Positions 3,501-43,424 of a stretch of 64,000 nucleotides of DNA are shown here, one piece after another (position 1 is the stretch's first letter; each line of letters opens with the position of its first letter). The DNA comes from an uncultured Actinomycetota bacterium (GTDB lineage Bacteria > Actinomycetota > UBA4738 > HRBIN12). Below the pieces are notes generated by a model, which made no database searches, was not told the origin of the DNA, and saw nothing but the letters and a program-made list of their open reading frames with translations. The translations under genes and the position numbers were made by a program. The stretch spans positions 244,157 through 308,156 of the forward strand of contig CAVVAK010000009.1 in the NCBI GenBank assembly GCA_963746335.1, read 5' to 3'.

Positions 3501-3579
3501 TTCTTAGCCTTCTCTGGCCGTAGGATTCCGGTCGCGGAGTTCGGCTCGAGGACTCGAGGAAAGGAGCGGCGCCCTTCCC

Positions 3580-4509: not shown

Positions 4510-5288
4510 GCGGATCGAGGCGCACCACCTACGACGCCCGGGGCCTCGCGGAGCCGCATGCCGAGATCCCCAAGGTCTCCGACATCGACGGCGTCACGGC
4601 CGGCTTCGATGCGACGGATCTGACCACCCGGGAGATCAACCTCGAGCTGCGCTGGCTGATCTACGAGCAGGGGATCCGCGACGTCACGGTGCGCAACCCC
4701 GGGGCGAAGCATTCGATCGGTGTCGGGATCCTGCAGCGCTGCCGGATCCGGTTCGAGGGCTCCCTGGGCTACTTCGGGCTCGGGCTGAACGACGGCCCCG
4801 AGATCACCGTGACCGGCCGCGTCGGCTGGTCATCCTGCGAGAACATGATGTCCGGGGTCGTCGTGATCGAGAAGAACGCCGGCTCCCTCACCGGAGCGGC
4901 CATGCGAGGCGGAGACCTCATCGTCAAGGGCAGCGTCGGCGCCCGCACCGGGATCGACCAGAAGGGCGGGACGATCATCGTCGGGGGCGACGCCGGCACG
5001 ATGACCGCCTTCATGATGCAGCGAGGCAGGCAGATCATCCTCGGAGATGTCGGTCCCGGGCTCGGTGACTCGATGTACGAGGGTTCGATCTACGTGGCCG
5101 GGAAGGTCAAGTCGCTCGGGATCGACTGCGTCGAGGAAGCGTGGACGGATGCGGACACAGAGATGATCGAACGGAAGTTCCGGATCTACGGACTCGGAAG
5201 CCCGCCCGCGTTCCAGAAGTTCGGCTGCGGCAAGATGCTCTACAACTACGACAACCTCGAGCCGAGCGAGAAGAAGTACGTCATCTGA
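4506..5288 (+). CDS. mgsB: N-methylglutamate synthase subunit B (GXGXG-repeat domain, GlxC-like)
   Basis: In-frame ATG at 4506 inside track ORF 3936..5288; the upstream part is Arg-rich shadow sequence. The 260-aa product has repeated Gly-rich beta-helix repeats (GSLGYFGLG, GRVGWSSCENM, GAAMRGGDLIV, GTIIVGGDAG) typical of the GltB C-terminal domain. Confidence 0.85.
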   Translation: MSGSRRTTYDARGLAEPHAEIPKVSDIDGVTAGFDATDLTTREINLELRWLIYEQGIRDVTVRNPGAKHSIGVGILQRCRIRFEGSLGYFGLGLNDGPEITVTGRVGWSSCENMMSGVVVIEKNAGSLTGAAMRGGDLIVKGSVGARTGIDQKGGTIIVGGDAGTMTAFMMQRGRQIILGDVGPGLGDSMYEGSIYVAGKVKSLGIDCVEEAWTDADTEMIERKFRIYGLGSPPAFQKFGCGKMLYNYDNLEPSEKKYVI

Positions 5289-5345
5289 ACGGCCGAGGGG
5301 CTCGATGCCAGGAAGAGCGAACCCAAGAAGAGTGAACAAGGAGAC

Positions 5346-6752: not shown

Positions 6753-6774
6753 AGGCCAGAGAACGGAGAAGACG

Positions 6775-7209
6775 ATGGACGAACCGCAGCTGTCGACGAA
6801 GATCGGGATCGATGCGGAGGAGCTCGCCGGCCGGCGATTCCCCTATCAGGAGGACATGTCACTCGTGGAGGACATCGACCTCGATGCGCTGACTCCGGGA
6901 GAGGATCTGAACTGGCTCGAGGACGTCACGCTCCTTCAAGAGGACGGCGTCGCCGCGGTTTTCGATCGCTACTCGAACTCCTTCCTGAAGATCTATTTCG
7001 AGATCCCCGCCGGTCGAGAGGACGAGTTCGCCCGCAAGGTGCTGATGAAGCACCTGATCGAAGGCGATTCGTACGGGATCCAGCTGAAGACCAAGCACGC
7101 GAAGTTCCCGCAGCCGATGCTCGGGCCATGGGTGGAGAACTCGGAGATCGTCGGTGCGGACTGGAAGCCGGCGGTGATGGAGGGCTGGGAACGGCCCGCC
7201 GGCCACTGA
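6775..7209 (+). CDS. hypothetical acidic protein, no family recognised
   Basis: 144-aa ORF with normal GC3-rich codon usage and a GGAGAAG RBS. It starts 22 nt after mgsC and ends 22 nt before the next gene on the same strand. Confidence 0.7.
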   Translation: MDEPQLSTKIGIDAEELAGRRFPYQEDMSLVEDIDLDALTPGEDLNWLEDVTLLQEDGVAAVFDRYSNSFLKIYFEIPAGREDEFARKVLMKHLIEGDSYGIQLKTKHAKFPQPMLGPWVENSEIVGADWKPAVMEGWERPAGH

Positions 7210-7231
7210 TCACCGTGCAGAGCTCCGATCC

Positions 7232-8041
7232 ATGCCAGGCCCTGATCGGATGACGGACCGACGCCCATTGGTCGCGATCTCGGAAGGCTTCGCCGACTAC
7301 GGCGACTACTACGGATACGGGTACGGGCGCCCGCTGCTCGCAGCGGACGCCCTCCCCGTCCTCCTCCCGTACTACGAACGGGAGGAGGATCGAGTTGGCT
7401 TGATCGAGCAGATCGACGGCCTCGTCCTCGCCGGGGGCAGGGACATCGAGGCCTGGCGCTACGGGCGTGAGGAGCCCCATCCCAAGCACCTACCCGGGCA
7501 GCCCTTCCTGGACGAGATCGACATCTCCTACGCGCTGCTCGCGGTCGAGCTGGAGGTGCCCGTCCTGGGCGTATGCCGGGGGTGTCAGGTGCTGAACGTC
7601 GCCCTCGGCGGGACGCTCTACGGAGATCTCGACGAGTTCCCGGAGGGTGGTGCGGATCATCCCGGTGCCAAGTGGGACGAGTGGCGAGCCTTGGTCGCCG
7701 CGACGCTCGAGGGGACGGAGCGCCCTCCGCACCCCAGCCATCCCGTCGATCTGAAGCCGGGGTCGCTCCTCGCTTCCCATCTCGGGGAGCGCTATGAGGT
7801 GGACAGCTACCACCATCAAGCGGTGAAGGATCTGGGGACCGGCCTCGAAGCGGTCGCCTGGGCGCCGCACGGGACCATCGAGGCTATCGAGATGCCCGGT
7901 GCACCCGTGTTCGTTCTCGGTGTCCAGTGGGAGCTCCATGAGGAGTGGCAGGACGACGAGCGTTCGCTCGCCATCTGGCGCACGTTCGTCGACGACGCCC
8001 GGCGCCGGATGGAGGCGCGTGAGGAGGTCTGGGTTCCCTGA
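7232..8041 (+). CDS. peptidase C26 / class-I glutamine amidotransferase-type gamma-glutamyl hydrolase (PuuD-like)
   Basis: 269 aa with GVCRGCQVLNVALGG (nucleophile Cys) and YHHQAV (catalytic His), the layout of gamma-glutamyl-GABA hydrolase family proteins. Confidence 0.8.
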   Translation: MPGPDRMTDRRPLVAISEGFADYGDYYGYGYGRPLLAADALPVLLPYYEREEDRVGLIEQIDGLVLAGGRDIEAWRYGREEPHPKHLPGQPFLDEIDISYALLAVELEVPVLGVCRGCQVLNVALGGTLYGDLDEFPEGGADHPGAKWDEWRALVAATLEGTERPPHPSHPVDLKPGSLLASHLGERYEVDSYHHQAVKDLGTGLEAVAWAPHGTIEAIEMPGAPVFVLGVQWELHEEWQDDERSLAIWRTFVDDARRRMEAREEVWVP

Positions 8042-8105
8042 CCGGCTCCACGCAGGGAAGACCCTAGAATCCTCTCGGAACCGACCTCGAAAGGTGGTCG
8101 TTGGG

Positions 8106-9440
8106 ATGACGCTTCCGGAGCATGCGCGGGTCGTCGTGATCGGTGCCGGCGTCCACGGCCTCTCCACTGCCTGGCATCTGGCGAACGAACTCCGAGCTCG
8201 CGGCGTCGGAGACGGAAGGGACGTCGTCATCCTCGACAAGGAAGGGGTCGGCGCCGGCCCGTCGGGCATCGCCTGCGGCGTGATCCGGAACAACTACTTC
8301 CAGCCCGCGATGCGCGAGCTGATGGCGCACTCGGTGCAGGTCTGGGAGTCGGACCCCGAGGCCTTCCACTACCACCCGATCGGCTATCTCCAGATCGGCC
8401 CGGAGGTGATGCGCGCCGACGTGGCGCAGATCCACGAGGAGCAACAGGCGATCGGGTATCCGTCGGAGCTGATCGAGGGCGACGACGATTGCCGGACCTA
8501 CATGGAGTCGATCTTCTCGGATTGGCAGGCCAAGAACATCTCGGTGGTCCTGCACGAGAAGAAGGGCGGATACGCCGAGAACATGCCGTCGATGCGCGGC
8601 CTCCGCGGGAAGAGTGAGGCGCTCGATGTCGAGCTCCACACGCCGGTGACGGTGACGGGGCTCGCGGTCGACGGCGGGGCGGTGACCGCCGTGGAGACCG
8701 ACAGGGGAACGATCGCCTGCGAGCAGCTCGTGGTGGCGGCCGGTCCCTGGGTCCGGGATTTCTGGCACATGCTCGACCTGCCCGGCGTCGTCGACGTGAA
8801 GGGCCGCGACGGCACGGTGTACGAGCGTCCGATGTGGACGTACTGGTGCCTCCAGGAGGGAACCCTCGGGGTCGATCCCACCTACCTCGTGGACAACGAG
8901 GGGAACATGCCGCCCGTGGTCCATCTGGACACGGATGCGCCCCTGCTCGACGACATGGACGGCTCGACCGTGAGCGAAGACCTCTGGGGCATCTACTACA
9001 AGCCCGACTTCAACTTCGGCGGCGTCCAGGGGGGGGCGATGCCGTGGGTGGTCGAGCAACCGGCAGACGATGTCGCGGTCGACCCGTACGGGGAGAGGAG
9101 CACGGAGTTCCTCGTGACGCCGGAGTTCGAGCGTATGTGGACGTCCGCGCTGGCGCACTGTCAGAAGCGCTTCGAGGGCAAGCGGCCGCTCTACCGGAAG
9201 GCGCCCACCGGAGGCATCGGCGCGTTCACGCCGGACAGCTTCCCTGTGTTCGACCTGTTCCGCGAGAACGCCTACGTGATCGCCGACTCGAACCACGGCT
9301 ACAAGATGATCGGGATCGGAGCGCTCGTCGCGAAGGAGCTCCTCGGAGAGAACCAGTCGCTGCTCGAACCCTTCCGGTTCTCCCGCTTCGCGGAGGGTCG
9401 GCTGCACCCGGTCAGTCATTCCCCGTACCCCTGGAGCTAG
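8106..9440 (+). CDS. FAD-dependent oxidoreductase of the DAO / sarcosine-oxidase-beta-like family
   Basis: ATG at 8106 (track ORF 7899..9440 trimmed). The N-terminal VVVIGAGVHGLSTAWHLA is an FAD Rossmann motif. It is 444 aa and has no adjacent alpha/gamma/delta subunit genes. Confidence 0.8.
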   Translation: MTLPEHARVVVIGAGVHGLSTAWHLANELRARGVGDGRDVVILDKEGVGAGPSGIACGVIRNNYFQPAMRELMAHSVQVWESDPEAFHYHPIGYLQIGPEVMRADVAQIHEEQQAIGYPSELIEGDDDCRTYMESIFSDWQAKNISVVLHEKKGGYAENMPSMRGLRGKSEALDVELHTPVTVTGLAVDGGAVTAVETDRGTIACEQLVVAAGPWVRDFWHMLDLPGVVDVKGRDGTVYERPMWTYWCLQEGTLGVDPTYLVDNEGNMPPVVHLDTDAPLLDDMDGSTVSEDLWGIYYKPDFNFGGVQGGAMPWVVEQPADDVAVDPYGERSTEFLVTPEFERMWTSALAHCQKRFEGKRPLYRKAPTGGIGAFTPDSFPVFDLFRENAYVIADSNHGYKMIGIGALVAKELLGENQSLLEPFRFSRFAEGRLHPVSHSPYPWS

Positions 9441-9443
9441 CCG

Positions 9444-10424
9444 ATGGCGGAGCGCCGCGTCGCGGGGGCACCGCCGCTCGAGTTCGACCTGCCGGTCCAC
9501 GGCGGGTTCGCGCCGATCGGGATCGGCGAGACGTTCCCGGAGGAGACGACCGAGTCCGACGAGCTGGAGATCGCGGGCGAACCGGGGCAGGATCCAGCCG
9601 TCGCGTTCCGTCGCACGCTGGGCATGTTCGCGACGGGCGTCACCGTGATCACCACGCAGGCGGGGGACCAGGTGCACGGGATGACCGCCAACGCGTTCAT
9701 GTCCGTGTCGCTCCGCCCCCCGCTCGTCGTGATCTCGGTCGACCGGCGCGCCAAGATGCATGCCCTCCTGCACGAGGGCCGGCGGTACGGGATCAGCGTG
9801 CTCGCGGACGAGCAGCGGGCGCTCTCCGACCGCTTCGCCGGCCGCACCGGCGAGGGAACGGAGGAGGTCGAGTTCGACATCGTTCACGAGACACCGCTCT
9901 TGCGGGGGGCGCTCGCCCATCTGGTGTCCAGGGTGGTGCGCTCCAACTGGGGAGGCGACCACTCGCTGTTCGTGGGGCAGGTCGAGTACGCACGCTACGG
10001 GGAAGGGCAGCCGCTCCTGTTCCACGGCGGTCGGTACGAGCATCTGGTGGAGCGCGTCCCCGTGTTCTCCTCGCTGCCGCCCGAGATCCTCGACGCGATC
10101 ACATCCCAGGGTGACGAGCGCACCTTCGAGGCCGGGGAGTTCGTCGTTCGGGATGGTGATCCCGGCGATGAGCTCTTCGTGATCCTGGACGGGGAGGCCC
10201 GCGTCGAACGGAAGGGGAGCGCGCTCGCGACGTTCGGCACGGGCGACTTCTTCGGGGAGATCGCCGTGTTCGACGGCCGCCCCCGGAGCGCCGACGTCGT
10301 GGCCGCGACACGCCTGCGGACGCTGTCGATCTCGCGCGACCTGATCCGCGAGGCGCTCATGCGCGAGCCTCGGGCGGCCTGGGCGATGCTCGAGGTTCTG
10401 GCCGCTCGCTTCCGCGACGACTGA
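9444..10424 (+). CDS. fusion protein: flavin reductase-like domain plus C-terminal cyclic-nucleotide-binding domain
   Basis: The N-terminal half (FRRTLGMFATGVTVITT, GMTANAFMSVSLRPPLVVISV, HSLFVGQV) is the flavin reductase fold. The C-terminal half (FEAGEFVVRDGDPGDELFVILDGEARV, FFGEIAVFDGRPRSADVVA) is a cNMP-binding cassette. It starts 3 nt after the previous stop. Confidence 0.85.
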   Translation: MAERRVAGAPPLEFDLPVHGGFAPIGIGETFPEETTESDELEIAGEPGQDPAVAFRRTLGMFATGVTVITTQAGDQVHGMTANAFMSVSLRPPLVVISVDRRAKMHALLHEGRRYGISVLADEQRALSDRFAGRTGEGTEEVEFDIVHETPLLRGALAHLVSRVVRSNWGGDHSLFVGQVEYARYGEGQPLLFHGGRYEHLVERVPVFSSLPPEILDAITSQGDERTFEAGEFVVRDGDPGDELFVILDGEARVERKGSALATFGTGDFFGEIAVFDGRPRSADVVAATRLRTLSISRDLIREALMREPRAAWAMLEVLAARFRDD

Positions 10425-10425
10425 G

Positions 10426-11295
10426 TCAGTCGATCTCCGGCAGCTCGTCGAGCCAGGCCGTCCGGTAGCCGGTCTCGTCCCACATCACGGGGAAGAACGA
10501 CTCGTCCATCGAGACGTCGCCACGGCGCCGGTACCGCGAGTAGATGAGATCGACGTTGCGGTGGTGGAAACGTGCGTGGGACGGAAGCATGTGGGACACC
10601 AGCGCCATGCGAGCCACCGTGCCGCTCCTGTTCGGCTCGGAACCGTGCCACGTCAGGTTGTGGTGGAAGGCGCCGCCGCCGGGCTTCACGACGACCGGCA
10701 CGACCTCCATCTCGGCGTCGACCGGTTTCGCCGCCCTGACGCCCTCGAGCCAGTCCTCGGGCGCGTGGAACTGCGAGCGCTCCGGGGGTGTCCACGGCCA
10801 GTGGTTGGAGCCGCGAACGTAGGCGATCGGGCCGGCGTCGGCCTGCGTCTCATGGAGCGACATCCAGCAGGTGACCATCTCCGGCGGCACGAGGTAGTCG
10901 GCGTACGAGCCGTCCTGGTGGAAGCCGATCGCCTTCGTCCCCGGGGGCTTCCACAGGACGTTGTCCTGGAGGATCCGCACGCCTGGGTAGCTCATCAGCT
11001 GTGCGGCGAGCCGTCCGATCCTCGCGGACAGGACCTGCGCCGCGATCACGGTGTCCGCGCGCCACGCGTTGCAGAGCTGCCGGGTGCGGTCCTCGGGATC
11101 CCGGCCCTTGACCCAATTGACCTCGTCCGGCTTGATCCCCGTCTCGTACTCGCCGTCGAAGAGGCGGAGGTAGCGCTCCTCCAGCAGCTCCCGTGCCTTG
11201 TCGGAGATCAGGCCCTCCTCCACGACGAGGAACCCGTCCCGTTGGAAGGTCTCCACCTGCTCGGGTGTGAAGGATTCGACGAGGCGGCCCATCAC
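10426..11295 (-). CDS. phytanoyl-CoA dioxygenase (PhyH) family Fe(II)/2-oxoglutarate dioxygenase
   Basis: 289 aa with F..DGFLVV at the N-terminus, the FHQDGSY His-x-Asp motif and a distal HxxW/HGS region. The start (GTG 11295 or ATG 11292) overlaps the stop of the upstream gene. Confidence 0.8.
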   Translation of the reverse strand: MMGRLVESFTPEQVETFQRDGFLVVEEGLISDKARELLEERYLRLFDGEYETGIKPDEVNWVKGRDPEDRTRQLCNAWRADTVIAAQVLSARIGRLAAQLMSYPGVRILQDNVLWKPPGTKAIGFHQDGSYADYLVPPEMVTCWMSLHETQADAGPIAYVRGSNHWPWTPPERSQFHAPEDWLEGVRAAKPVDAEMEVVPVVVKPGGGAFHHNLTWHGSEPNRSGTVARMALVSHMLPSHARFHHRNVDLIYSRYRRRGDVSMDESFFPVMWDETGYRTAWLDELPEID

Positions 11296-13640
11296 GACGA
11301 GCGGGGCCGCGTCTTGTCCGGGTCGTAGAAGGGGAAGCGGACGACCTGTGCGCCGATGCGCTTCTGGTGCCCGTCGAGCTTGCCGACCTCCAGGGCGGTG
11401 CCCGAGTCGCGGTGCTGCACCGCGACACGGGCGAGTGCGATGTTCTTCTTCAGAGTCGGGGAGCGGGTGCCGCTCGTCACGACCCCCACCTGCTGCCGGT
11501 CGGCGTACACGCCGTCGCCGTGTCCGGCCGTCTCGTTGCCCTCGAGCTCGAGCCCGACCAAGGTCCTTTGCGGGTGGTCCCGGCGCTCGAGCAGGGCCTC
11601 ACGCCCGACGTAGTCCTCGTCCTTGTCCCTGGGCACCGTGAAGCCGATCCCGGCCTCGAACGGGTCGACCTGATCGTCGAACTCGGAGCCCGCGAAGATC
11701 AGGCCGGCCTCGATGCGCAGGATGTCCAGCGCATCCAGGCCGACGGGCGCGAGGCCGTGTTCCTCGCCGGCCTCCCACACCGCGTCCCACACCACAGGAG
11801 CGTCCTTCGGATGGCAGAAGATCTCGTAGCCGAGCTCGCCCGTGTAGCCCGTTCGGGAGATCACGGCGGGCACGCCCGTCGGCCCGCCGATCCGCCCCAC
11901 CGAGAATCGGAACCATCCAAGCCCTTCGAAGGGCGTCTGGGCCGGCGGGACCCATACGACCTCCTTCAACAGGTCGCGGCTCGCCGGACCCTGAACGGCC
12001 ACGTTGTGGAGGTGGTCGGTCGACTCCTTCACGAACGCGTTCAAGCCCAGGCGCGCGGCCTGCTCCCGGAGCCAGACGCCGTCGTACTCGCTGCCGCCCA
12101 CGAACCGGAAGTTCGTGTCCGCGATCCGGAAGATCGTGGCGTCGTCGATCATCCCGCCGGCCTCGTTGCACATCGCCGTGTAGACGACGTGCCCGTCGGC
12201 CAGGCGCCGGACGTCGCGGGTGACGGTCGCCTGCATCAGCGCCTCCGCGTCGGGACCGAGCACTTCGAACTTCCGGAGCGGCGAGAGGTCCATGATCGCC
12301 GCGCGCTCGCGGCAGGCCCAGTACTCGTCGGTGGCGCCGTGGTTGTCGAAACTCGTCGGCAGCCAATAGCCGTTGTACTCCGTCATCCGGCTCGTCAGCT
12401 GCGAGATCCGCGGGTGGAAGCCGGTCTCCGTCGTGAGGGACGGCTCCGCGTCGGGCGTGACGCGGTGCGCGATCGCCGCCGAGAAGGTGTGCTCGGGGGG
12501 ATACACACGCACGTGCACCTCGGTCGGATCCCAGCCGTTCGCGGGGTCGACGTCGTCGGGACAGGCGCTGGAGGCGCACACCAGGTCGGTCGCCGCTCGC
12601 AGCAGCACGTAGTCCCCGGGGCGGGACCAGGGCTCGTCGAACACGAGCAGGTTGTCCGTCGCGAACATCGTGTTGTAGAAGAAGTTCAGCGCCTGCCAGC
12701 CCTTCCTCGGCGCGATCGCGTAGGTCTCGAGCTGCCGGTTGAAGTTGTCGGTGCAGTTCGTGTGGCCGAAGTACCCGAGGTTCTCGTAGTACCGAGAGGT
12801 GCACGCGAGCAGGAACGAGTCGTGCCGCCCGACCGTGTCCCGGATCACTTCGACCAGCACGTCCATGTCGAGATCGAAGAACTTCGAGTACAGGCCAGGT
12901 TGGGGGAACGCATTCCCCATCAAGGTGCGGGTGATCGTGGGATCGAAGCCACGCTCGACGCCGTCCTCGAGCTTCCGGCGATGGAACGCCAGGAAGTCCG
13001 AGCACTGCTTGCCCTCGACGTCGATGATCTGGATGTACTCCCCGGCCTTGACCTCGTAGGACAGGGCGGTCGCGCGATCGACCCGGAAGTCGAGGCGCGG
13101 CTCGGCGAGCGGGGGAGGGAGCTCGAGCTCGTCGTGGGTCCGAGGGCGCGTCCGACGAACCTCCACGTCGAGGTCCGACGCAGGGACACCGCCCTCCAGC
13201 AGGGACGCGCCCTCGGGCGCCGCGATCACGACGACGACCGGCCGTTCCGCGGTGAACGTGTGGGAGGTCCCCGGCGGCGACCACTCGCCGAACAGCCGGA
13301 CGGCCATCGCCGCCGAGGGGTCCAGGCCACGACCGGCCAGGGACGCCACCACGTCCCTCGCGCCGACCGCGTCGGATCCGATCAGCGAGCGCAGCACCGA
13401 TGCGGGGGCGTCGGCCCGACCGCCCAGCGCATCGGCGTCATCGGAGCCGTCCGGCGCGAGGGCCGTGACCTCCGCCACCTGACCGCCGTCCGGATCGTGC
13501 ACCGTGAGCTGGTCGTCGCCTTCGAGGGTTATCACGGTGGCACCACCGGGTCGGACCCAGTACCGCTCGAGGAACGGGTCCGAGGCGATCAGTCCGGGGA
13601 CGGTGAGGCCTCGGCGTCCGGTCGAGATCGCCATCCGCAT
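11292..13640 (-). CDS. tdm: DUF1989 + GcvT (THF-binding aminomethyltransferase) fusion, the architecture of trimethylamine-N-oxide demethylase
   Basis: 782 aa. The N-terminal part is a Cys-rich DUF1989-type block (VEGKQCSDFLAF, LLACTSRYYENLGYFGHTNCTDNF, LVCASSACPDD). The C-terminal 400 aa is GcvT-like (AIMDLSPLRKFEV, TGYTGELGYEIF, PVGLDALDILRIEAG). The start overlaps the upstream stop (TGATG). Confidence 0.65.
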   Translation of the reverse strand: MRMAISTGRRGLTVPGLIASDPFLERYWVRPGGATVITLEGDDQLTVHDPDGGQVAEVTALAPDGSDDADALGGRADAPASVLRSLIGSDAVGARDVVASLAGRGLDPSAAMAVRLFGEWSPPGTSHTFTAERPVVVVIAAPEGASLLEGGVPASDLDVEVRRTRPRTHDELELPPPLAEPRLDFRVDRATALSYEVKAGEYIQIIDVEGKQCSDFLAFHRRKLEDGVERGFDPTITRTLMGNAFPQPGLYSKFFDLDMDVLVEVIRDTVGRHDSFLLACTSRYYENLGYFGHTNCTDNFNRQLETYAIAPRKGWQALNFFYNTMFATDNLLVFDEPWSRPGDYVLLRAATDLVCASSACPDDVDPANGWDPTEVHVRVYPPEHTFSAAIAHRVTPDAEPSLTTETGFHPRISQLTSRMTEYNGYWLPTSFDNHGATDEYWACRERAAIMDLSPLRKFEVLGPDAEALMQATVTRDVRRLADGHVVYTAMCNEAGGMIDDATIFRIADTNFRFVGGSEYDGVWLREQAARLGLNAFVKESTDHLHNVAVQGPASRDLLKEVVWVPPAQTPFEGLGWFRFSVGRIGGPTGVPAVISRTGYTGELGYEIFCHPKDAPVVWDAVWEAGEEHGLAPVGLDALDILRIEAGLIFAGSEFDDQVDPFEAGIGFTVPRDKDEDYVGREALLERRDHPQRTLVGLELEGNETAGHGDGVYADRQQVGVVTSGTRSPTLKKNIALARVAVQHRDSGTALEVGKLDGHQKRIGAQVVRFPFYDPDKTRPRSS

Positions 13641-15043
13641 CAGCCTTTGGCCGCGGGCTCCTTGGACACCTGCTCGTCCGCCTCCTTGAAGAGCTGCTCG
13701 GCGAGCTCGCGCTTGCCCGCCGCGTCGAGCTTCTTGACCTCGTTCTCCACGGCCCGTCGGTTGTAGGACTGGTTCCAGTAGTCGAGCGACTCGAAGCCGA
13801 GGAGCACGGCTTTCCCGACGAATTGCCGCAGCACCTCGTTGGTCGGTCCCATCACCCAGCCGGCCTTGGCGTCACGCAGGTAGCGCTCGAGCTCCATGTC
13901 GCGCTTGTAGCCGGAACCGCCGCACGCGTGGAGCATCTTGTCGACGACGTGCGCGGTGTTCTTCGCAGCCACGAACTTGATCTGCCACGCCCAGTGGAGG
14001 AAGGTGCCGCGCGCGAGCTCGCCGGGGCCTGGGTTCACCGTGTTGTGCTCGGTCGCGCCGTCCATCGCCTGGGCGACGGAGAGCGTGAACAGCCGCGAGG
14101 CGTTGGTGTCCATGACGGCCTCGCCGACGTAATCCTGGATCGTGGGGTAGTCGGCGACCCGCAGCCCGACGTCCACGTGCTTCTTGCGGGTGGTGTGCCG
14201 CTTGGCGATGTCGATCGCCCCGAGGGCGAGCCCGTTCCACACCGACGAGGAGCCGACCAGGAACCAGGGATCGACGGATTCGTCGTTGGAGTTGGCGCCG
14301 TCGCCCGTCGGGCCGACGAGCTGCTCGGCGGGGATCTCGATGTTGTCGATCTCGATCGGCCCCGACTGGTTCCCTCGCAGCCCGAGCGCGTCCCACAGCG
14401 ACGGGTGCGCCTGGATGTGCTCGCCGTCCACGACGAACACGGAGAGATCGTCGTACCCGGTGAAATCGGGACTCGTCGTCTGTACGACGTAGAAGTCGGC
14501 GAACCCACCCGACGTCGTCCATGAGGCCTTCTTCCGGACCTTGAATCCGCCGTTGGAGCGCTCCGCGCCCGACGAGATCGGGTACCAGAAGTGGGAGCCC
14601 GTCTCGGGGTCGGAATAGGAGAGGGTGCCGATCTTGCCGGAGTTCAGCGGTCGGATGTACTTGTCGACGAGCTCGGGGGTGGCGCGAAGCATGATCGCGT
14701 TCACGGCGCCGATGTGCATCACGTAGCACATCGCGGTGGAGGCGCAGCCGTAGCGTGCGATCGTCTCGCAGACCATCGAGTAGGCGACGTGGTCCTCGCC
14801 GAGGCCACCGTACTCCTCCGGCACGGTCAACCCAAGGAACCCGTGCTCGCCGAGGAGCTCCAGGTTGCGGCGAGGGAACATGAGCTCGTCGTCGAAACGC
14901 TTGGCGTTCGCGCGGAGCTCCTTCTCGCAGAGCTCGATCAGCGTGGCGCGGAGCTCCTTCTGCTTGTCGGTGTAGACCCAGTCCGGATCCCAGTCGTAGC
15001 CGAGTCCCCAGAAGGGCTCGGCACCCCACATCTTCTCGGTCAT
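13640..15043 (-). CDS. acyl-CoA dehydrogenase-fold flavoprotein with a non-canonical active site; possible flavin-dependent monooxygenase/oxidase
   Basis: ATG at 15043 with a GGAGG RBS (track ORF extended to 15124). It has the ACAD fold throughout. The usual IYEGT catalytic-Glu block reads VMGPT, and there is a C-terminal extension of about 60 aa. Confidence 0.75.
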   Translation of the reverse strand: MTEKMWGAEPFWGLGYDWDPDWVYTDKQKELRATLIELCEKELRANAKRFDDELMFPRRNLELLGEHGFLGLTVPEEYGGLGEDHVAYSMVCETIARYGCASTAMCYVMHIGAVNAIMLRATPELVDKYIRPLNSGKIGTLSYSDPETGSHFWYPISSGAERSNGGFKVRKKASWTTSGGFADFYVVQTTSPDFTGYDDLSVFVVDGEHIQAHPSLWDALGLRGNQSGPIEIDNIEIPAEQLVGPTGDGANSNDESVDPWFLVGSSSVWNGLALGAIDIAKRHTTRKKHVDVGLRVADYPTIQDYVGEAVMDTNASRLFTLSVAQAMDGATEHNTVNPGPGELARGTFLHWAWQIKFVAAKNTAHVVDKMLHACGGSGYKRDMELERYLRDAKAGWVMGPTNEVLRQFVGKAVLLGFESLDYWNQSYNRRAVENEVKKLDAAGKRELAEQLFKEADEQVSKEPAAKG

Positions 15044-15138
15044 CTCGCCTCCATCGGGCCGCGGTCCTGGGCGGGTTTCGGCGCCCATGCTAGGCGGGCT
15101 CCGCGAGCCGGGCAACGCGGTCACTCGTGGCCCGGAAC

Positions 15139-15168
15139 GGCAACGGGGCGGCGAACCGCCCCGTTGCC
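15139..15168 (-). terminator. GC-rich hairpin, probable intrinsic terminator after the permease gene
   Basis: GGCAACGGGGCGG-CGAA-CCGCCCCGTTGCC forms a perfect 13-bp stem with a 4-nt loop, 22 nt downstream of the permease stop. There is no clear U-tract on the minus strand. Confidence 0.55.
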
Positions 15169-15190
15169 TCTCCCTCTGTTTCCTGTCGAT

Positions 15191-16717
15191 CTACGAGGAC
15201 CTGTCCGGCATGACCTCCTCGCGCAGCAGCCTCATCTGGTCCTCGCTCGGCACGCTCGGGACGTCCAGGTCTCGGAAGGTGATGGGCTTCCTGTCCTGAA
15301 CGGCGCGTCGATAGAAGAACAGGAGTACCGACGCCACGAGCACCCCGAGTCCGATCCACAGCGGCGCCCCCGCGAACTCGTAGAACCCCACGAAGGCAGC
15401 GACGTCGCTCTGCGTCACACCGAAGATCACGAGGAAGAGGTTGAAGGCTGCCAGCAGCCAGGCGAGACCGATCCAGGCGGGGCCGACCTTGATCGGCCTC
15501 GGCCAGTCCGGACGGTCTCGACGGAGCAGGAGGAACCCGGTGAGGGCGAAGACATGTGCGAGCACGTATCCGATGTTCGACATGTAGAGGATCGCCAGGT
15601 TGCTCGCCCCGAGGAGCAGGATGAGGGCCACGTTCACGACCATGTCGACGGTCATCCCACGCGCGGGGACGTGGAACTTGTTCAGGTGGTAGAGCCACTT
15701 GATCGTCATGTCGTCGCGGGCGATCCCGTAGAGCGCACGGCCGCCGTCGGCCGTGGCAGAGTTCATCGAAAGGACCAGGCTCGCGAGCAGGGAGATGATG
15801 GCGACCCCGCCGATCGTGTCGCCCACGATCGACTTGAACGCCTCGACGTAGTACGGCCCGAAGTCACCGGTGCTTCCCACCACGCCTCCCAGTCCGAGAG
15901 GGAGCAGGATGTACACGGCAAGCGAGAACGCGGCGGCGGATCGGAGGGCAAGCGCGGTGTCTCGTTTCGTGTCGTGGTACTCGGGAGCGAAGCTGGCACA
16001 GACCTCGATCCCGTATGCGGACCAGCACATGATGAACAGCCACATCACCGAGATCGAGAAGAGGCTGAACTCGCCTCCCGAAGCGACGTCCTCGAACTTC
16101 ACGTTCGAGCTCGACCAGTCGCCCGTGAAGTAGGGGACCACGATGAAGATCGCGAGCGGGATCATCAGCAAGACGCCGGTCACGTACCCGACGGCGAGCG
16201 AGGGCTTGACGCCGAACACGTTGAAGAGCCAGACGGCGATCACGACACCGATGCCGATGATGTTCGCCGGCCCGATGGCCGCGTCGAAGGGGGTGGTGAA
16301 GAAGACGGTCTCAGCCGAACCGGGGAACCATTCGGCGACGACGAGTGAACCGATGAGGTTGCCGAAGATCGAGAGGACCACGGACCATCCGATCCAGTAG
16401 CCGAAGGCGGAGATCGGGCCGGCGAGGTTGAAGTACTTGCGCCAGCCCTCGTGCGCGTAGAGCGCGATCCCGCCGGGCTTGTCCGGGAACATCGCCGCGG
16501 TCTCCGAGTAGATCCAGTTCTGGAGGAGACCGACCACTGCTGAGATGCCCCAGAGAACCACCGAGCCGAGGGCCCCGACGGTGGCCAGGGTGAAGCCGAG
16601 TGATGCGATCAAGAACCCCGGGTTGCACAGGGCGATGACGAAACCGTCCCACCAATTGAGCGACTTCAGGAGTTGACGCTCCTCGATGGTCGCCTGCGCC
16701 GTGACCTCGTCAGCCAC
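15191..16717 (-). CDS. APC-superfamily permease; candidate TMAO/methylated-amine importer
   Basis: Polytopic protein with about 12 TM segments and APC-type blocks. GTG at 16717 is preceded by GAGGGAGGGG; the track start at 16807 is less likely. It sits directly upstream of the ACAD-like/tdm-like operon. Confidence 0.8.
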   Translation of the reverse strand: MADEVTAQATIEERQLLKSLNWWDGFVIALCNPGFLIASLGFTLATVGALGSVVLWGISAVVGLLQNWIYSETAAMFPDKPGGIALYAHEGWRKYFNLAGPISAFGYWIGWSVVLSIFGNLIGSLVVAEWFPGSAETVFFTTPFDAAIGPANIIGIGVVIAVWLFNVFGVKPSLAVGYVTGVLLMIPLAIFIVVPYFTGDWSSSNVKFEDVASGGEFSLFSISVMWLFIMCWSAYGIEVCASFAPEYHDTKRDTALALRSAAAFSLAVYILLPLGLGGVVGSTGDFGPYYVEAFKSIVGDTIGGVAIISLLASLVLSMNSATADGGRALYGIARDDMTIKWLYHLNKFHVPARGMTVDMVVNVALILLLGASNLAILYMSNIGYVLAHVFALTGFLLLRRDRPDWPRPIKVGPAWIGLAWLLAAFNLFLVIFGVTQSDVAAFVGFYEFAGAPLWIGLGVLVASVLLFFYRRAVQDRKPITFRDLDVPSVPSEDQMRLLREEVMPDRSS

Positions 16718-17303: not shown

Positions 17304-17576
17304 GTGACCTTCCTGATCACGTGTCCCAACTGCGGGCCGCGAGAGGCCCTGGAGTTCGCCTTCGGCGGCGAGACGACGAGGCGCGCCGGACCGGCAGCGA
17401 CCGACCGTGAACTTGCCGCCTCCCTGTACTTCCGTCGCAACGTGGACGGATGGCAGATCGAATGGTGGGTGCACCAGAGCGGATGCCGCGCCTGGTTCCT
17501 CGCCGAGCGTCACACGACCACGAACGAGATCAGGCGCACCTATCGACCCGAGGATCGAGAGGCCGCGCCCGCGTGA
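17304..17576 (+). CDS. soxD: sarcosine oxidase delta-subunit family protein (N-methylglutamate dehydrogenase small subunit)
   Basis: 90 aa with a GTG start after a GAAGGAG RBS. CPNCGPR...EF and WWVHQSGCRAWF are typical SoxD blocks. The stop overlaps the next start (GTGA). Confidence 0.85.
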   Translation: MTFLITCPNCGPREALEFAFGGETTRRAGPAATDRELAASLYFRRNVDGWQIEWWVHQSGCRAWFLAERHTTTNEIRRTYRPEDREAAPA

Positions 17577-20383
17577 GTAGGCGGCTTCCGGAGCGCCTGG
17601 GCGAAGCGATCCGGCGCGACCGGCCGATCAGGTTCCGATTCGAACGCCGGACGATCCCCGCCTTCGAGGGGGACACGGTGGGATCGGCGCTCGCCGCCGC
17701 CGGGGTGTCGATCACGAGCCGCTCGTTCAAGTATCACCGGCCGCGCGGGCTGCACTGCATGACGGGCTCGTGCCCCAACTGCTTGATGCAGATCGACGGG
17801 ATCCCCAACGTCCGCGCGTGCACCGAGCCCGTGTGCGAGGGGATGCGGGTCGAGCGGCAGAACGCCTGGCCCTCGGTCGACCGTGACATCCACGGATGGC
17901 TCAACACGTTCTCGTTCATGATGCCGCCGGGCTTCTATTACAAGGTCTTCCAGCGACCTCGCTGGGCGTGGCCCTTCGTCGAGCCGTTCATCAGATCGAA
18001 GGCCGGGCTCGGCACGGTGCCGCACGAGCCCGATCACCGCCGCAGACGGAGGATCAACCTGCATCCGGATGTCCTGGTGATCGGCGCCGGTGCCGCCGGC
18101 CTCGCGGCCGCGACGGCGGCGGCGGATGCCGGAGCGACGGTCGTCCAGCTCGAGCAGGGCCGCGAGGCCGGCGGCCACCTCCTCGGCGATCCGAATGCAA
18201 GTCTCCGATCGCGGCTCGCGCGGGAAGCGCTCGAGTCGGGAGTCCGTCTCCTCCCGAACACGGCGGCGTTCGGGGTCTTCGGCGGGATGCTCGTGGCGGC
18301 CGCCGGTCCCGACGCCCTGTACCGGATCCGAGCGAAGCATCTGATCTTCGCGACGGGCGCCGTCGAGCAGTCCGCCGTCTTCCCCGGGAACGACCTTCCG
18401 GGGGTCATGTTGTCCTCCGGGGTGGAGCTGCTCCTCCATCGCTTCGGTGTGCTGCCCGGGCGACGCGCGGTCGTGCTCACCGCCGATAACGCCGGCTACT
18501 CGACCGCCTGGGCGCTGCGCGACGCAGGAGCCGAGGTGACCGTCGTCGACCTTCGCTCCGAGGGAGGCTGGCCGGAGGGGTTCCCCGTGGTGCCCGGCTC
18601 GACGATCGTCGCCGCGCACGGTCGCCGGCGGGTGACGGGGATCACCGCGGGGCCGCCGGGCGCCTCGTCCGGTCACAGGATCCGCTGCGACCTCGTCGTG
18701 ATCGCCTCCGTGCAGATGCCCTCGACCAACCTGTTGGCTCAGGCCGGTGCGCGGCTGGCCTTCAACGATACGAGGCAGGCCTTCCTCCCCGTCGACATGC
18801 CGGACCGGATGCATGCCGTGGGCGCCGTCGCGGGGACCGGGACACCGGAGGCGGCGATCGCGCAAGGGAAGCTCGCGGGGCTCGAGTCCGCCGCCGCGCT
18901 CGGCCACCATGTCGACCAGGCTGAGGTGACGGAGCTCCGCGCCGAAGCCGGTGCGGCCGGGGACCCGGTCGTCCTTCCGCCGGAGGCCTCGGCCGCCTCG
19001 GGGAAGCAGTTCGCGTGCCTGTGCATGGACGTCACGTCGAAGGAGCTGAAGACGGCCGCCGCCGAGGGGTTCGATTCGATGGAGCTCCTCAAGCGCTACA
19101 CGACGATCACGATGGGCCCGTGCCAGGGGAAGTCCTGCATGCTGTCATCACAGCGGCTGTGCGGCCAGGCGACCGGACGGTCCTTCGGGGAGACGAAGCC
19201 CACGACGGCGCGACCACCCTGGGTTCCCGTGGAGATGGGCACGCTGGCCGGCTCCCGCTTGACGCCTCGCAAGCAGACGACGATGCACGATCGGCATGCG
19301 GCGGCCGGAGCCGAGTTCATGTGGGCGGGGGATTGGCGAAGGCCGCACCACTACACGACCCCGGAGGCCGAGGTCGATGCGGTCCGGAACCGGGTCGGGC
19401 TGATCGACGTGAGCACCCTGGGCAAGTTCCGGATCAAGGGGCCCGAGTCGGTCGAGCTGCTAGAGCGCCTGTACCCGAGCCGATTCTCGGACCTCGCGGT
19501 GGGGAGGGTCCGCTACGGGGCGATGCTCAACGACGAGGGGGTGATCCTCGACGACGGCGCGGTCGTCCGACTGGCGGACGACGAGTTCTTCGTGACCGTG
19601 ACGACGGGCAACACGGCGGCGCTCGAGCGATGGATCACCTGGTGGAACGCCGACTGGCAGCTCGACGCCCGCGTGCTGAACGTGACCGGTGCCTTCGGCG
19701 CCCTCAACCTGGCTGGCCCCCGAGCGAGGAGCGTCATGGCCGCGCTCACCGACGCCGACGTGTCCGGGGACGCCTTGCCGTACATGTCCGCCACGAAGAT
19801 GGACGTCGCCGGTGTGCCGTCTCTGGTGCTGCGGATCGGCTTCGTGGGCGAGATGGGCTACGAGATCCATTTCCCCTCGGCGTACGGCGAGCACCTGTGG
19901 GACACCATCATCGACACGGGGCGCGTCGGCGGGATCGCCGCGTTCGGCCTCGAGGCCCAGCGGATCTTGCGTCTCGAGAAGCAGCACATCCTCGTGGGCC
20001 AGGACACCGATGCCGAATCGGATCCGTTCGAGGTCGGACTCGGCTGGATGGTGAAGGAGGACAAGGAGGACTTCCTGGGCCTGCGCGCGTTGCGGGACCT
20101 GAAGCAACGGGGACCAGAAGAGCGCCTGGTGGGGTTCACGGCCCCCGACCGGTGGCTCCCGCCGGAAGGAGCGTCGGTGGTTCGTGACGGCGCCTGGGTC
20201 GGTCGGGTGACGTCGGCGAGACGGAGCGCGGCGGTCGGGAGCGTCATCGGCCTCGCCTGGGTCCCCGCAGACACGGCCTCCGATGGGAGCACGTTCGAGA
20301 TCCAGTTCGGGGGCAGCCACACGACGGGAACGGTGCGCACCGCTCCGTTCTACGACCCTCGCGGCCAGAGGTTGCGGTCATGA
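17573..20383 (+). CDS. soxA: sarcosine oxidase alpha-subunit family protein (N-methylglutamate dehydrogenase large subunit, with THF-binding GcvT-like C-terminus)
   Basis: GTG at 17573 (track ORF 17450 trimmed). The N-terminal F.G...DTVGSALAAAG 2Fe-2S-like region is followed by the VLVIGAGAAGLAAA Rossmann motif. The C-terminus is GcvT-like (GLIDVSTLGKFRIKG, GFVGEMGYEIHF). Confidence 0.9.
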   Translation: MSRRLPERLGEAIRRDRPIRFRFERRTIPAFEGDTVGSALAAAGVSITSRSFKYHRPRGLHCMTGSCPNCLMQIDGIPNVRACTEPVCEGMRVERQNAWPSVDRDIHGWLNTFSFMMPPGFYYKVFQRPRWAWPFVEPFIRSKAGLGTVPHEPDHRRRRRINLHPDVLVIGAGAAGLAAATAAADAGATVVQLEQGREAGGHLLGDPNASLRSRLAREALESGVRLLPNTAAFGVFGGMLVAAAGPDALYRIRAKHLIFATGAVEQSAVFPGNDLPGVMLSSGVELLLHRFGVLPGRRAVVLTADNAGYSTAWALRDAGAEVTVVDLRSEGGWPEGFPVVPGSTIVAAHGRRRVTGITAGPPGASSGHRIRCDLVVIASVQMPSTNLLAQAGARLAFNDTRQAFLPVDMPDRMHAVGAVAGTGTPEAAIAQGKLAGLESAAALGHHVDQAEVTELRAEAGAAGDPVVLPPEASAASGKQFACLCMDVTSKELKTAAAEGFDSMELLKRYTTITMGPCQGKSCMLSSQRLCGQATGRSFGETKPTTARPPWVPVEMGTLAGSRLTPRKQTTMHDRHAAAGAEFMWAGDWRRPHHYTTPEAEVDAVRNRVGLIDVSTLGKFRIKGPESVELLERLYPSRFSDLAVGRVRYGAMLNDEGVILDDGAVVRLADDEFFVTVTTGNTAALERWITWWNADWQLDARVLNVTGAFGALNLAGPRARSVMAALTDADVSGDALPYMSATKMDVAGVPSLVLRIGFVGEMGYEIHFPSAYGEHLWDTIIDTGRVGGIAAFGLEAQRILRLEKQHILVGQDTDAESDPFEVGLGWMVKEDKEDFLGLRALRDLKQRGPEERLVGFTAPDRWLPPEGASVVRDGAWVGRVTSARRSAAVGSVIGLAWVPADTASDGSTFEIQFGGSHTTGTVRTAPFYDPRGQRLRS

Positions 20384-43324: not shown

Positions 43325-43423
43325 CTGTCGAGTGCACCGGGGAGCTCGGAGATGGCCGGGCTGAGAGGCGGGACCGTTCCCGCGACCCGCAGGACCTGAA
43401 CCGGACAATGCCGGCGGAGGGAG
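43325..43423 (+). promoter_or_regulatory. TPP (THI-box) riboswitch
   Basis: CCGGGGAGC ... GCUGAGA ... ACCC ... ACCUGAACCGGACAAUGCCGGCGGAGGGA matches the conserved TPP aptamer core. Its 3' end contains the thiE RBS (GGAGGGAG) directly before ATG 43425. Confidence 0.9.
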
Positions 43424-43424
43424 C

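Follow-up and report, generated by a model that had tools for sequence, protein, structure and literature searches.

A conserved gene island for methylated amines in uncultured soil Actinomycetota, with a trimethylamine N-oxide demethylase and candidate non-orthologous oxidative enzymes

Introduction

Methylated amines are major nitrogen and one-carbon (C1) currencies and are precursors of aerosols. The closest described systems for their catabolism are the trimethylamine (TMA) clusters of Methylocella silvestris, Ruegeria pomeroyi and SAR11, which comprise tmm, tdm, tmoP or tmoXWV, dmmDABC, gmaS, mgsABC and mgdABCD. In these clusters, the flavin-containing monooxygenase (FMO) Tmm converts TMA to trimethylamine N-oxide (TMAO), the demethylase Tdm converts TMAO to dimethylamine (DMA), and the Dmm proteins serve the step from DMA to monomethylamine (MMA). 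Adjacency of tmm and tdm is typical of the Methylocella and marine clusters. Although the way from TMA to ammonia is regarded as known, the absence of dmmDABC from many carriers of tdm and gmaS is an acknowledged gap (PMC5520151). The island described here lies in a 64-kb stretch of DNA from an uncultured Actinomycetota bacterium (contig CAVVAK010000009.1, positions 244,157 to 308,156; hereafter the window, to which all positions refer). It extends from 229 to about 28,700 and encodes Tdm next to a flavoprotein with the fold of acyl-CoA dehydrogenases (ACADs).

The genes of the window, which has a G+C content of about 68%, were called via third-position GC content and then scanned with Pfam and NCBIfam. 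An earlier reading of the sequence, referred to here as the original prediction, had listed the named genes of the island with their domains, and this inventory is borne out by both sets of profiles. The best explanation, held tentatively and with slightly less than even confidence, is that an orthodox Tdm and an N-methylglutamate pathway are combined here with non-orthologous oxidative enzymes, in the order of steps proposed below. The island is probably a new enzymatic route for climate-relevant methylated amines, and there is a realistic chance that a known fold has acquired a new enzyme activity in it.

Tdm and its conserved neighbors

The 782-aa protein encoded at 11292–13640 on the minus strand is, by its profile score and alignment, Tdm, an equivalog of the characterized enzyme, with a DUF1989 zinc catalytic core and a GcvT tetrahydrofolate domain. 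It has the expected Pfam architecture (PF09347, DUF1989, 154.5 bits; PF01571, GCV_T, 234.6 bits; PF08669, GCV_T_C, 75.2 bits) and passes the cut-off of the NCBIfam equivalog NF053776 (1163.8 bits, cut-off 1100; profile positions 11–762 of 763), which upholds the TMAO demethylase architecture assigned to it before. It also aligns over both domains with a characterized Tdm, the point on which that assignment had been said to hinge: residues 11–781 match the Paracoccus TDM solved by cryo-EM (PDB 9q59, E = 5e-266). In the Paracoccus enzyme, D220, F327 and D367 make the substrate and product contacts around a single zinc site, and the zinc is bound by TMAO via the oxygen of TMAO (PMC13619132). The alignment with 9q59 shows that the equivalents of D220 and D367 are kept in the window Tdm and that F327 is replaced by tyrosine, as it also is in one other actinobacterial Tdm that was read (L024).

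Two groups of genes converge in this part of the island. On the plus strand, an apparent operon (2103–10424) encodes a GmaS-like ligase, mgsA, mgsB, mgsC, a 144-aa protein, a peptidase C26-type hydrolase, an orphan SoxB-like flavoprotein (DAO) and a flavin reductase fusion. The minus-strand genes that converge on it encode an APC-superfamily permease and, beyond a hairpin, the ACAD-like protein, Tdm and a PhyH-family oxygenase. The original prediction had placed the set of uncharacterized genes at 8106–16717; all named genes are present, but the C26 gene (7232–8041) lies just outside that interval. Overlaps of 1 nt between stop and start codons, of the TGATG type, join the ACAD-like, Tdm and PhyH genes; the junctions, read from the sequence, are GGC-TGA-TG (ACAD-like/Tdm) and GTGATGG (Tdm/PhyH). 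The translational coupling of the PhyH gene to tdm that had been proposed thus holds, and the ACAD-like/Tdm junction is coupled as well.

The hairpin is a perfect, GC-rich stem of 13 bp, GGCAACGGGGCGG-TTCG-CCGCCCCGTTGCC, at 15139–15168 on the minus strand, after the stop codon of the permease and ahead of the start of the ACAD-like gene. It lacks a T-run, a feature needed by the terminator scan, which did not report it. Its role may be in termination, attenuation or mRNA processing, setting the permease apart from the ACAD–Tdm–PhyH unit. Rfam and promoter/terminator scans gave nothing relevant within the island.

Across uncultured soil Actinomycetota, these genes form a conserved module for the catabolism of methylated amines. 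One genome per GTDB species was scanned, and the ACAD-like protein was found in at least 563 genomes, with 80 loci kept. The kept loci belong nearly all to uncultured Actinomycetota (Thermoleophilia, Gaiellaceae, Acidimicrobiia and metagenome-assembled genomes (MAGs) of ‘Actinomycetes’), many of them from a survey of Danish soil. The comparison covered 81 non-redundant loci with about 20 kb around each, 55 of which have full flanks of at least 9 kb on each side. Wherever enough sequence was available, tdm lies immediately downstream of the ACAD-like gene on the same strand in all but one case (70 of 71 loci), which answers the call in the original prediction to look for co-occurrence of the gene set with tdm in relatives. 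The ACAD-like protein, the reductase and Tdm form the only universally co-located trio in the full-flank loci (100%, 98% and 100%), followed by PhyH (91%), DAO (80%), the APC permease (76%) and C26 (35%). Median identity to the window proteins is 87% for the ACAD-like protein, 69% for Tdm, 59% for the reductase and 89% for MgsC. The ACAD-like protein is thus one of the best-conserved parts of the module, and this unusual degree of conservation, with the coupling to tdm, suggests that it may form a physical complex with Tdm. An exact-sequence look-up gave no record of the window Tdm; the organism was placed via the relatives L013, L028, L012, L016 and L019, whose ACAD-like proteins are 98% identical to the window copy.

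Gene order is shuffled across the loci, yet the ACAD-like, reductase, PhyH and DAO genes stay with tdm, gmaS and mgs. In the rearranged loci L002–L004, the PhyH gene is coupled to the reductase gene and DAO lies beyond the mgs operon. L086, with an ACAD-like protein 64% identical to that of the window, has the order DAO-gmaS-mgsABC-hypothetical-PhyH, then ACAD followed by an OpuAC ABC transporter, then reductase and Tdm. In some relatives, the APC permease gives way to an ABC transporter of the OpuAC type or to one that is Amt-like. This persistence through rearrangement strongly supports the earlier claim that the uncharacterized genes are part of the methylated-amine pathway. Genes inserted between PhyH and the reductase in relatives were considered as amine oxygenases and turned out to be two-component regulators, transporters and similar genes.

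No FMO-like, Dmm-type or Oxidored_FMN (TMA or DMA dehydrogenase) domains were found in the called genes of the 64-kb window, and no FMO-sized or Dmm-like recurrent neighbor was found around the 81 related loci, whose genes were clustered and read by eye without a Pfam scan. The lack of tmm, dmm and a TMA/DMA dehydrogenase noted earlier therefore holds for the window and for about 20 kb around the 81 loci. An Oxidored_FMN gene beside Tdm in L086 was tried as a DMA dehydrogenase and rejected; its first 105 residues resemble XenA/OYE-like ene-reductases.

Two further sets of genes were seen beside the module in relatives. By eye, the genes upstream of the ACAD–Tdm cluster in L049, an Actinomycetes MAG (L049:82-9969), look like those for a GMC (choline-dehydrogenase-like) oxidoreductase, a corrinoid protein that binds B12, a methyltransferase that binds pterin, a RamA-like activase, an MttB-superfamily methyltransferase and a MetF-like reductase. 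As a set, they would make up a system for demethylating quaternary amines beside the TMAO module. Small Cys-rich genes adjoin the module in L044 (9059-9508), L054 (1063-1467) and L086 (6671-6994). The one in L086 belongs to PF04828 (glutathione-dependent formaldehyde-activating enzyme, GFA), and those in L044 and L054 are GFA-like by eye. Such neighbors are consistent with the release of free formaldehyde by one of the uncharacterized steps.

The ACAD-like protein and its flavin reductase

The ACAD-like protein (13640–15043, minus strand) contains the N-terminal, middle and C-terminal ACAD domains of Pfam. It is 467 aa long, rather than the 494 aa of the maximal open reading frame (ORF), with an ATG start that follows GGAGG and a length that agrees with its homologues. 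The IYEGT(S/N)E(V/I)QR motif of solved ACADs, for which IYEGTSEVQR and IYEGTNQIQR of 4m9a and 3pfd served as reference sequences for the Glu position, aligns to VMGPTNEVLR. Where the catalytic Glu would stand, this protein and all aligned family members, down to about 30% identity, have Gly. The missing glutamate of the original prediction is thus confirmed at the ‘YEGT’ position of the MCAD type, and the IVD-type base position presumably lacks a Glu as well. The protein also carries family-specific N- and C-terminal extensions. An AlphaFold2 (AF2) model (pLDDT 86.7) has the three-domain ACAD fold, and the top-ranking NCBIfam family is the uncharacterized FadE16/Rv1679 family (226 bits). No electron transfer flavoprotein (ETF) domain was found in the called genes of the 64-kb window, and Pfam and NCBIfam scans of the window genes gave no CoA-ligase genes near the ACAD-like gene.

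The reductase (9444–10424, plus strand) is a fusion of a Flavin_Reduct domain (PF01613, 126.5 bits) with a cyclic-nucleotide-binding (cNMP) domain (PF00027, 73.4 bits), in which FGEIAVFDGRPRSA is taken to be the phosphate-binding cassette. Its top NCBIfam matches are StyB and HpaC, of the short-chain NAD(P)H:flavin reductase type. Short-chain flavin reductases of the PF01613 family are the classical partners of two-component monooxygenases. In 54 of the 55 full-flank loci, a PF01613 reductase is encoded no more than 10 kb from the ACAD-like gene, as would be expected of a dedicated partner, and the fusion to the cNMP domain is kept in those relatives whose domains or sequence were inspected. 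By analogy with such systems, the reductase fusion is proposed to be the reductase partner of an ACAD-like oxygenase.

A second cNMP-binding fusion in the window involves a transporter of the MFS type (30161–31873, minus strand). The two fusions suggest direct control of enzyme and transporter activity by cAMP or cGMP in this lineage.

Sequence and fold do not mark the ACAD-like protein as an oxygenase, but it looks like an oxygenase component rather than a dehydrogenase because a reductase is encoded beside it in bacteria and is fused to it in crustaceans. The family is most simply understood as an oxygenase component that receives reducing equivalents. In several group D flavoprotein monooxygenases, including DszC and the nitrososynthases, a flavin C4a-hydroperoxide oxygenates N or S atoms, and such N- or S-oxygenation matches the conversion of TMA to TMAO. 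Full-text literature searches turned up no account of an ACAD-fold oxygenase for TMA or DMA, of FadE16/Rv1679 function, or of TMA metabolism in Thermoleophilia or Gaiellales.

Homologues in crustaceans and other organisms

An exhaustive search of 1.8 billion cluster representatives revealed relatives of the ACAD-like protein at 36–51% identity in crustaceans, including a lobster, shrimps, an ostracod and a crab. The lobster, shrimp and ostracod homologues carry C-terminal FAD_binding_6 and NAD_binding_1 domains of the NADH-cytochrome-b5-reductase type. These fusions are found in Homarus americanus (P0125, XP_042236428.1), Penaeus vannamei (P0391, ROT69458.1), Penaeus japonicus (P0162 and P0421) and Notodromas monacha (P0149), while the crab Scylla paramamosain has a 235-aa homologue fragment (P0192). 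The lobster gene (locus L085) is a real animal gene, because its 16-kb span, which implies introns, lies on a 13-Mb scaffold beside cuticle-protein genes. The crustacean homologues share the N-terminal motif WG..FWGLG..DP.W of the family, its ARYGC(P/A)STAM...MH and GWVMxP(S/T)NEV motifs and its C-terminal YWNQ...NEVKKL extension.

Crustaceans accumulate TMAO, and lobsters have reportedly been found to synthesize it (Bilinski, in the 1960s). The fused crustacean homologues are candidates for an animal TMA oxidase and for TMAO synthesis.

More distant bacterial relatives occur in other surroundings. A homologue at 46% identity (P0127) has a different gene context without Tdm. The Sporosarcina-type loci L087 and L088 encode a Glu-less ACAD-like relative (about 34% identity) beside an OpuAC-type ABC transporter. 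The family is thus tied to trimethylammonium-type transport in three contexts: the TmoP-like permease of the window, OpuAC in L086 and OpuAC in Sporosarcina. Glu-less relatives at about 34–35% identity in L089 and L090 stand beside a gene with a weak match to the AurF family (PF11583) and one for a phosphonate-binding protein. There are hints in these surroundings that the wider Glu-less clade works on small nitrogen compounds.

PhyH and DAO as candidates for dimethylamine demethylation

The PhyH-family Fe(II)/2-oxoglutarate (2OG) oxygenase gene (10426–11295, minus strand) scores well above its Pfam cut-off (PF05721, 80.1 bits against 22). The HxD...H and Arg pattern of such enzymes is present as H125-Q-D127, H216 and R228, all invariant in 20 orthologues; by analogy, H125, D127 and H216 would bind the metal and R228 would bind 2OG. 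An AF2 model built from the 20 orthologues reached a pLDDT of only 33, probably because the alignment was too uniform. A profile search of PDB sequences gave MysH as the closest solved relative, a very distant one (E = 2.5e-11, 46 bits). MysH acts in palythine biosynthesis; in the reaction proposed for it, hydroxylation takes place at the carbon alpha to nitrogen, and the N-substituent is then lost by hydrolysis (PMC10666671).

The DAO gene (8106–9440, plus strand) encodes an orphan FAD amine oxidoreductase related to SoxB and DMGDH, with a match to PF01266 (110 bits) over the N-terminal 225 positions; it misses the cut-off of the soxB model TIGR01373 (67.2 bits against 529). In a profile search, its solved relatives are exclusively flavoenzymes that oxidize N-alkyl amines or amino acids, mostly N-methyl substrates (1y56_B, E = 7e-25; SoxB; DMGDH; DMGO; and monomeric sarcosine oxidase). 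A family-specific insert of about 120 aa distinguishes it. In some relatives, DAO follows a membrane protein of 481–485 aa (Amt-like as read by eye) or directly precedes gmaS.

By analogy with their relatives, PhyH and DAO are both credible DMA demethylases. Both genes are present in 39 loci, PhyH only in 10, DAO only in 5 and neither in none, so that each of the 55 full-flank loci has one or both. These counts were tried as a means of telling the two candidates apart and are uninformative, as only about one locus with neither gene is expected by chance.

The N-methylglutamate pathway and C1 genes

The downstream route claimed in the original prediction is present in terms of domains and gene order: a GmaS-like ligase, MgsABC, a SoxD/A/G/B-type N-methylglutamate dehydrogenase (Mgd), Fhs and formate dehydrogenase (FDH). 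For GmaS, Mgs and Mgd, the domains and gene order fit, but all NCBIfam scores are below the cut-offs and no specific Mgs or Mgd model was matched. The GmaS-like ligase (2103–3500, plus strand; Gln-synt_C, 294 bits) belongs to the type III glutamine synthetase family, with TIGR03105 as its best NCBIfam match (320 bits, under the cut-off of 469.6), and it is kept beside mgsABC in relatives. It would convert MMA and glutamate to gamma-glutamylmethylamide.

The N-methylglutamate synthase genes follow on the plus strand: mgsA (3580–4509), for the class-II amidotransferase subunit (GATase_6/7); mgsB (4506–5291), for a GXGXG-domain subunit with a weak FwdC-like (GXGXG) match; and mgsC (5346–6752), for the glutamate-synthase-domain subunit (PF01645, 310 bits). 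The order mgsA-B-C is kept in related loci, and the mgsB orthologues match PF01493 in L001 and, weakly, in L002. Next comes a conserved 144-aa protein (6775–7209, plus strand) with no Pfam or NCBIfam match. It follows mgsC wherever mgsC was seen in related loci, at 65–97% identity (34% in L086), and may be an unrecognized component of the actinobacterial N-methylglutamate synthase system.

The peptidase C26/class-I amidotransferase-type hydrolase (7232–8041, plus strand; PF07722, 165 bits) has the gamma-glutamyl-GABA hydrolase PuuD as its best NCBIfam match (73 bits, far under the cut-off). IpuF and AtdA2 are the analogues invoked for a gamma-glutamyl-amide hydrolase that works alongside a GmaS-type ligase, and such a role, accompanying GmaS, is probable for C26. 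The original prediction had counted C26 among the possible DMA demethylases; the PuuD match and the analogy with IpuF and AtdA2 explain it better as a hydrolase.

The four-subunit SoxD/A/G/B-type, N-methylglutamate-dehydrogenase-like operon (17304–22220, plus strand) was recognized with Pfam and NCBIfam; its scores against soxD (81 bits), soxA (759 bits) and soxB (449.8 bits, gene 21003–22220), all subfamily models, lie below the cut-offs. The C1 genes are fhs (229–1899, minus strand; PF01268, 808.9 bits, full length), for formate–tetrahydrofolate ligase, and those for FdhD and for an NAD-linked FDH, the latter at 23956–25893 (plus strand), 25904–27766 and about 27790–28722. The FDH alpha gene (23956–25893) has an in-frame TGA at 24202–24204, in the context R-T-[TGA]-H-A-P-S-V, which we take to be the selenocysteine position of FdhF-type enzymes. 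The N-terminal Fe-S domains of the alpha subunit (Fer2_4, Fer4 and Molybdop_Fe4S4) are separate and lie downstream of a NuoE/F-like gene, a split and permuted arrangement.

A proposed route and its alternatives

The permease of the APC superfamily in the minus-strand group (15191–16717; AA_permease_2, 134 bits) has the TMAO permease model NF053774 (TmoP) as its top NCBIfam match, at 197.1 bits against a cut-off of 690. From its sequence, the permease is only distantly TmoP-like.

In the proposed route, a methylated amine would enter via this permease. The cNMP-regulated reductase, possibly gated by cAMP or cGMP, would reduce flavin with NAD(P)H and hand it on to the ACAD-fold protein, which, as a flavin-hydroperoxide oxygenase of the group D type, would convert TMA to TMAO, the job done by Tmm elsewhere. 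Tdm, made from the same message as the ACAD-like protein, would then convert TMAO to DMA and pass the formaldehyde to tetrahydrofolate via its GcvT domain, giving methylene-tetrahydrofolate. PhyH, DAO or both would convert DMA to methylamine and formaldehyde: PhyH by hydroxylating the N-methyl carbon to a carbinolamine that collapses, or DAO by SoxB-like flavoprotein dehydrogenation of the C–N bond. Finally, methylamine would pass through GmaS, MgsABC and the SoxABDG-type dehydrogenase, and the C1 units would leave via Fhs and FDH. The substrates of the ACAD-like protein, PhyH, DAO and C26 in this scheme are inferred ones.

The original prediction placed the gap at the DMA step. The conversion of DMA to MMA is indeed unaccounted for, but so is that of TMA to TMAO. 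Likewise, the idea that the uncharacterized genes encode a DMA demethylase is kept as a candidate role for PhyH and DAO, whereas the ACAD-like protein and its reductase are at least as likely to be a replacement for Tmm as for Dmm. By analogy, the pair is most likely a two-component amine N-oxygenase that replaces Tmm. TMA is preferred over DMA as the substrate because the ACAD-like gene holds the position of tmm, upstream of and coupled to tdm; because flavin hydroperoxides oxygenate nitrogen and are not known to hydroxylate the unactivated C–H bonds of N-methyl groups; because the family is tied to trimethylammonium-type transporters in the three contexts described above; and because TMAO-accumulating crustaceans keep the family.

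Several observations weigh against this assignment. In both sequence and model, the ACAD-like protein resembles genuine acyl-CoA dehydrogenases more closely than it does any characterized ACAD-fold monooxygenase. The top 50 Foldseek matches to the model are all ACADs (TM about 0.9, 21–28% identity), so the model does not group with ACAD-fold monooxygenases, and the structure gives no positive support to an oxygenase. Its NCBIfam scores are 42.5 bits for DszC, 68.5 for SfnB, 54.8 for HsaA and 37.1 for C2-HpaH, all short of the respective cut-offs (850, 431, 450 and 650), so it is not a member of these families. Tdm passes its own cut-off only narrowly and has one of its substrate-contact residues altered, and the permease is not a TmoP orthologue. 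There are also more oxidative candidates (three) than missing steps (two), which means that one or more of the assignments must be wrong, redundant or incomplete. Finally, tmm or dmmDABC of the canonical kind may be encoded in other parts of the genome, since the negative result covers the window and the related loci.

The alternative that survives best, although unlikely, is that the ACAD-like protein and the reductase form a DMA monooxygenase, with TMAO being imported, Tdm making DMA, and PhyH and DAO acting on other substrates. The universal trio would then be a complete route from TMAO to MMA that needs no further enzyme, and the best family match of the permease, the TMAO permease model, fits such an import. 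The chemistry speaks against it: C4a-hydroperoxides are generally known to oxygenate N and S rather than N-methyl C–H bonds, and N-hydroxylation of DMA alone does not give MMA. This alternative also leaves PhyH and DAO, present in 91% and 80% of the full-flank loci, without a role, and it sits poorly with the retention of the fused enzyme by TMAO-accumulating crustaceans, for which we know of no DMA-demethylating pathway.

Rather less likely is that canonical tmm, dmmDABC or both (or a DMA dehydrogenase) are encoded elsewhere, and that the ACAD-like protein, PhyH and DAO serve a neighboring pathway that feeds methylated amines into this one, for example by releasing TMA from quaternary amines of the choline, carnitine or betaine type or by oxidizing other tertiary amines. 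The limited reach of the tmm/dmm search leaves room for it, and the GMC oxidoreductase and MttB-type corrinoid system read by eye directly upstream of the module in L049, the OpuAC-type transporters beside more distant homologues and the Tdm-less context of P0127 all point that way. However, none of the 81 loci has an FMO- or Dmm-like recurrent neighbor, and the Oxidored_FMN gene of L086 is of the XenA type. The 1-nt overlaps that couple the ACAD-like gene to tdm, and tdm to the PhyH gene, are an argument that the encoded proteins act in sequence or together on the substrate and product of Tdm.

In an improbable variant, the ACAD-like protein would be an N-oxygenase with two substrates, giving TMAO from TMA and N,N-dimethylhydroxylamine from DMA, and Tdm would demethylate both products, with PhyH and DAO as accessory proteins. 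TMA would thus be brought to MMA by the trio alone, with both formaldehydes passed to tetrahydrofolate, which would explain the universality of the trio, the ACAD–Tdm coupling and the absence of an extra GcvT/DmmD-like formaldehyde-capturing protein for the DMA step. The tyrosine in place of F327 could adapt the Tdm pocket to the hydroxylamine, which could bind the Tdm zinc through its oxygen, as TMAO does (PMC13619132). Such a cycle is purely inferential: use of dimethylhydroxylamine by Tdm was not found in the TDM paper (PMC13619132), and PhyH and DAO are conserved too strongly for dispensable genes. To our knowledge, no Tdm accepts dimethylhydroxylamine.

It is highly improbable that the ACAD-like gene codes for a standard acyl-CoA dehydrogenase or a related CoA-ester enzyme and is placed here by chance or for an unrelated reason, even though the nearest sequence and structure neighbors of its product are true ACADs. 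Against it stand the missing catalytic Glu, the lack of ETF or CoA-ligase genes nearby, the homologues fused to NADH-dependent reductase domains and the adjacency to Tdm, which is seen in 70 of 71 loci and extends over several actinobacterial classes.

If the ACAD-like protein and reductase do oxygenate TMA or DMA, amine turnover in soil is underestimated by surveys based on counts of tmm and dmm. With at least 563 species-level genomes, the module is a widespread alternative without tmm or dmm nearby, and the missing chemistry can be sought in its three candidate enzymes, all of them open to cloning. With such an oxygenase, the ACAD fold would gain a new activity, and the fused crustacean homologues would be candidates for TMAO synthesis in animals. 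A bolder version of the N-oxygenase reading, offered as speculation and on balance unlikely, is that the ACAD-like protein founds an unrecognized class of TMA monooxygenases unrelated to FMOs, two-component and cNMP-regulated in hundreds of species of soil Actinomycetota and self-sufficient in crustaceans, where the fusion would make the osmolyte TMAO. In the bacteria it would perhaps act iteratively with Tdm, so that N-oxygenation and rearrangement would take off two methyl groups with no need for a DMA monooxygenase.

Other features of the window

The roughly 35 kb outside the island is occupied by housekeeping genes, including those for phosphofructokinases, a PknB-type kinase, thiamine metabolism and the cell envelope. 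The phosphofructokinase-family genes are in tandem (35164–36192 and 36223–37371, plus strand; PF00365, 346 and 229 bits). A TPP riboswitch (RF00059, 55.6 bits) at 43328–43439 on the plus strand lies directly upstream of a thiamine-phosphate synthase gene (43425–44072). A Phosphoesterase gene (PF04185; 51061–52648, plus strand) is split over two overlapping frames, with profile positions 1–248 in the ORF at 51061–52476 and positions 250–356 in that at 52112–52648. The implied frameshift near 52235 is either a pseudogene mutation or an assembly indel.

Comparison with known systems

The Paracoccus TMAO demethylase (9q59) is matched by the window Tdm along its full length, in its three Pfam domains and in the equivalents of D220 and D367, and differs from it at F327, which is tyrosine here. 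A further difference is that the coupling partners of the window tdm are the genes for the ACAD-like protein and PhyH, not tmm.

With the group D two-component monooxygenases (DszC, the ORF36/KijD3 nitrososynthases, isobutylamine N-hydroxylase, SfnB, HsaA and C2-HpaH), the ACAD-like protein shares an ACAD fold that lacks the dehydrogenase base, and a flavin reductase of the HpaC/StyB type is encoded nearby. Unlike them, it is only remotely similar to any characterized member (37–68 bits) and has family-specific terminal extensions, and the reductase of the window has a cNMP-binding domain. The crustacean homologues differ again, with a fused cytochrome-b5-reductase-type module rather than PF01613 as the partner.

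The chemistry proposed for MysH is of the type needed to convert DMA to MMA and formaldehyde, although its substrate is entirely unlike DMA and its relation to the window PhyH is very distant (E about 1e-11). DAO aligns with SoxB, DMGDH and DMGO over its FAD-binding N-terminal half and its C-terminal end, but it has the insert of about 120 residues, no partner subunits and no GcvT domain, and a canonical SoxB-type subunit is already present in the window at 21003–22220, apart from DAO.

Compared with the TMA clusters of Methylocella silvestris, Ruegeria pomeroyi and SAR11, the window and the surroundings of the 81 loci are without the class-B FMO Tmm and DmmDABC. Their place in the window is taken by PhyH, an orphan SoxB-like flavoprotein and a protein of ACAD fold accompanied by a PF01613 reductase, and the permease of the window falls far below the TmoP cut-off. 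What the island shares with those clusters is an orthologous Tdm, a GmaS-like ligase, MgsABC, a SoxABDG-type dehydrogenase and an APC permease whose best match is TmoP. The gene for the ACAD-like protein, the proposed oxygenase, lies directly upstream of tdm, in the place that is taken by tmm in the known clusters.

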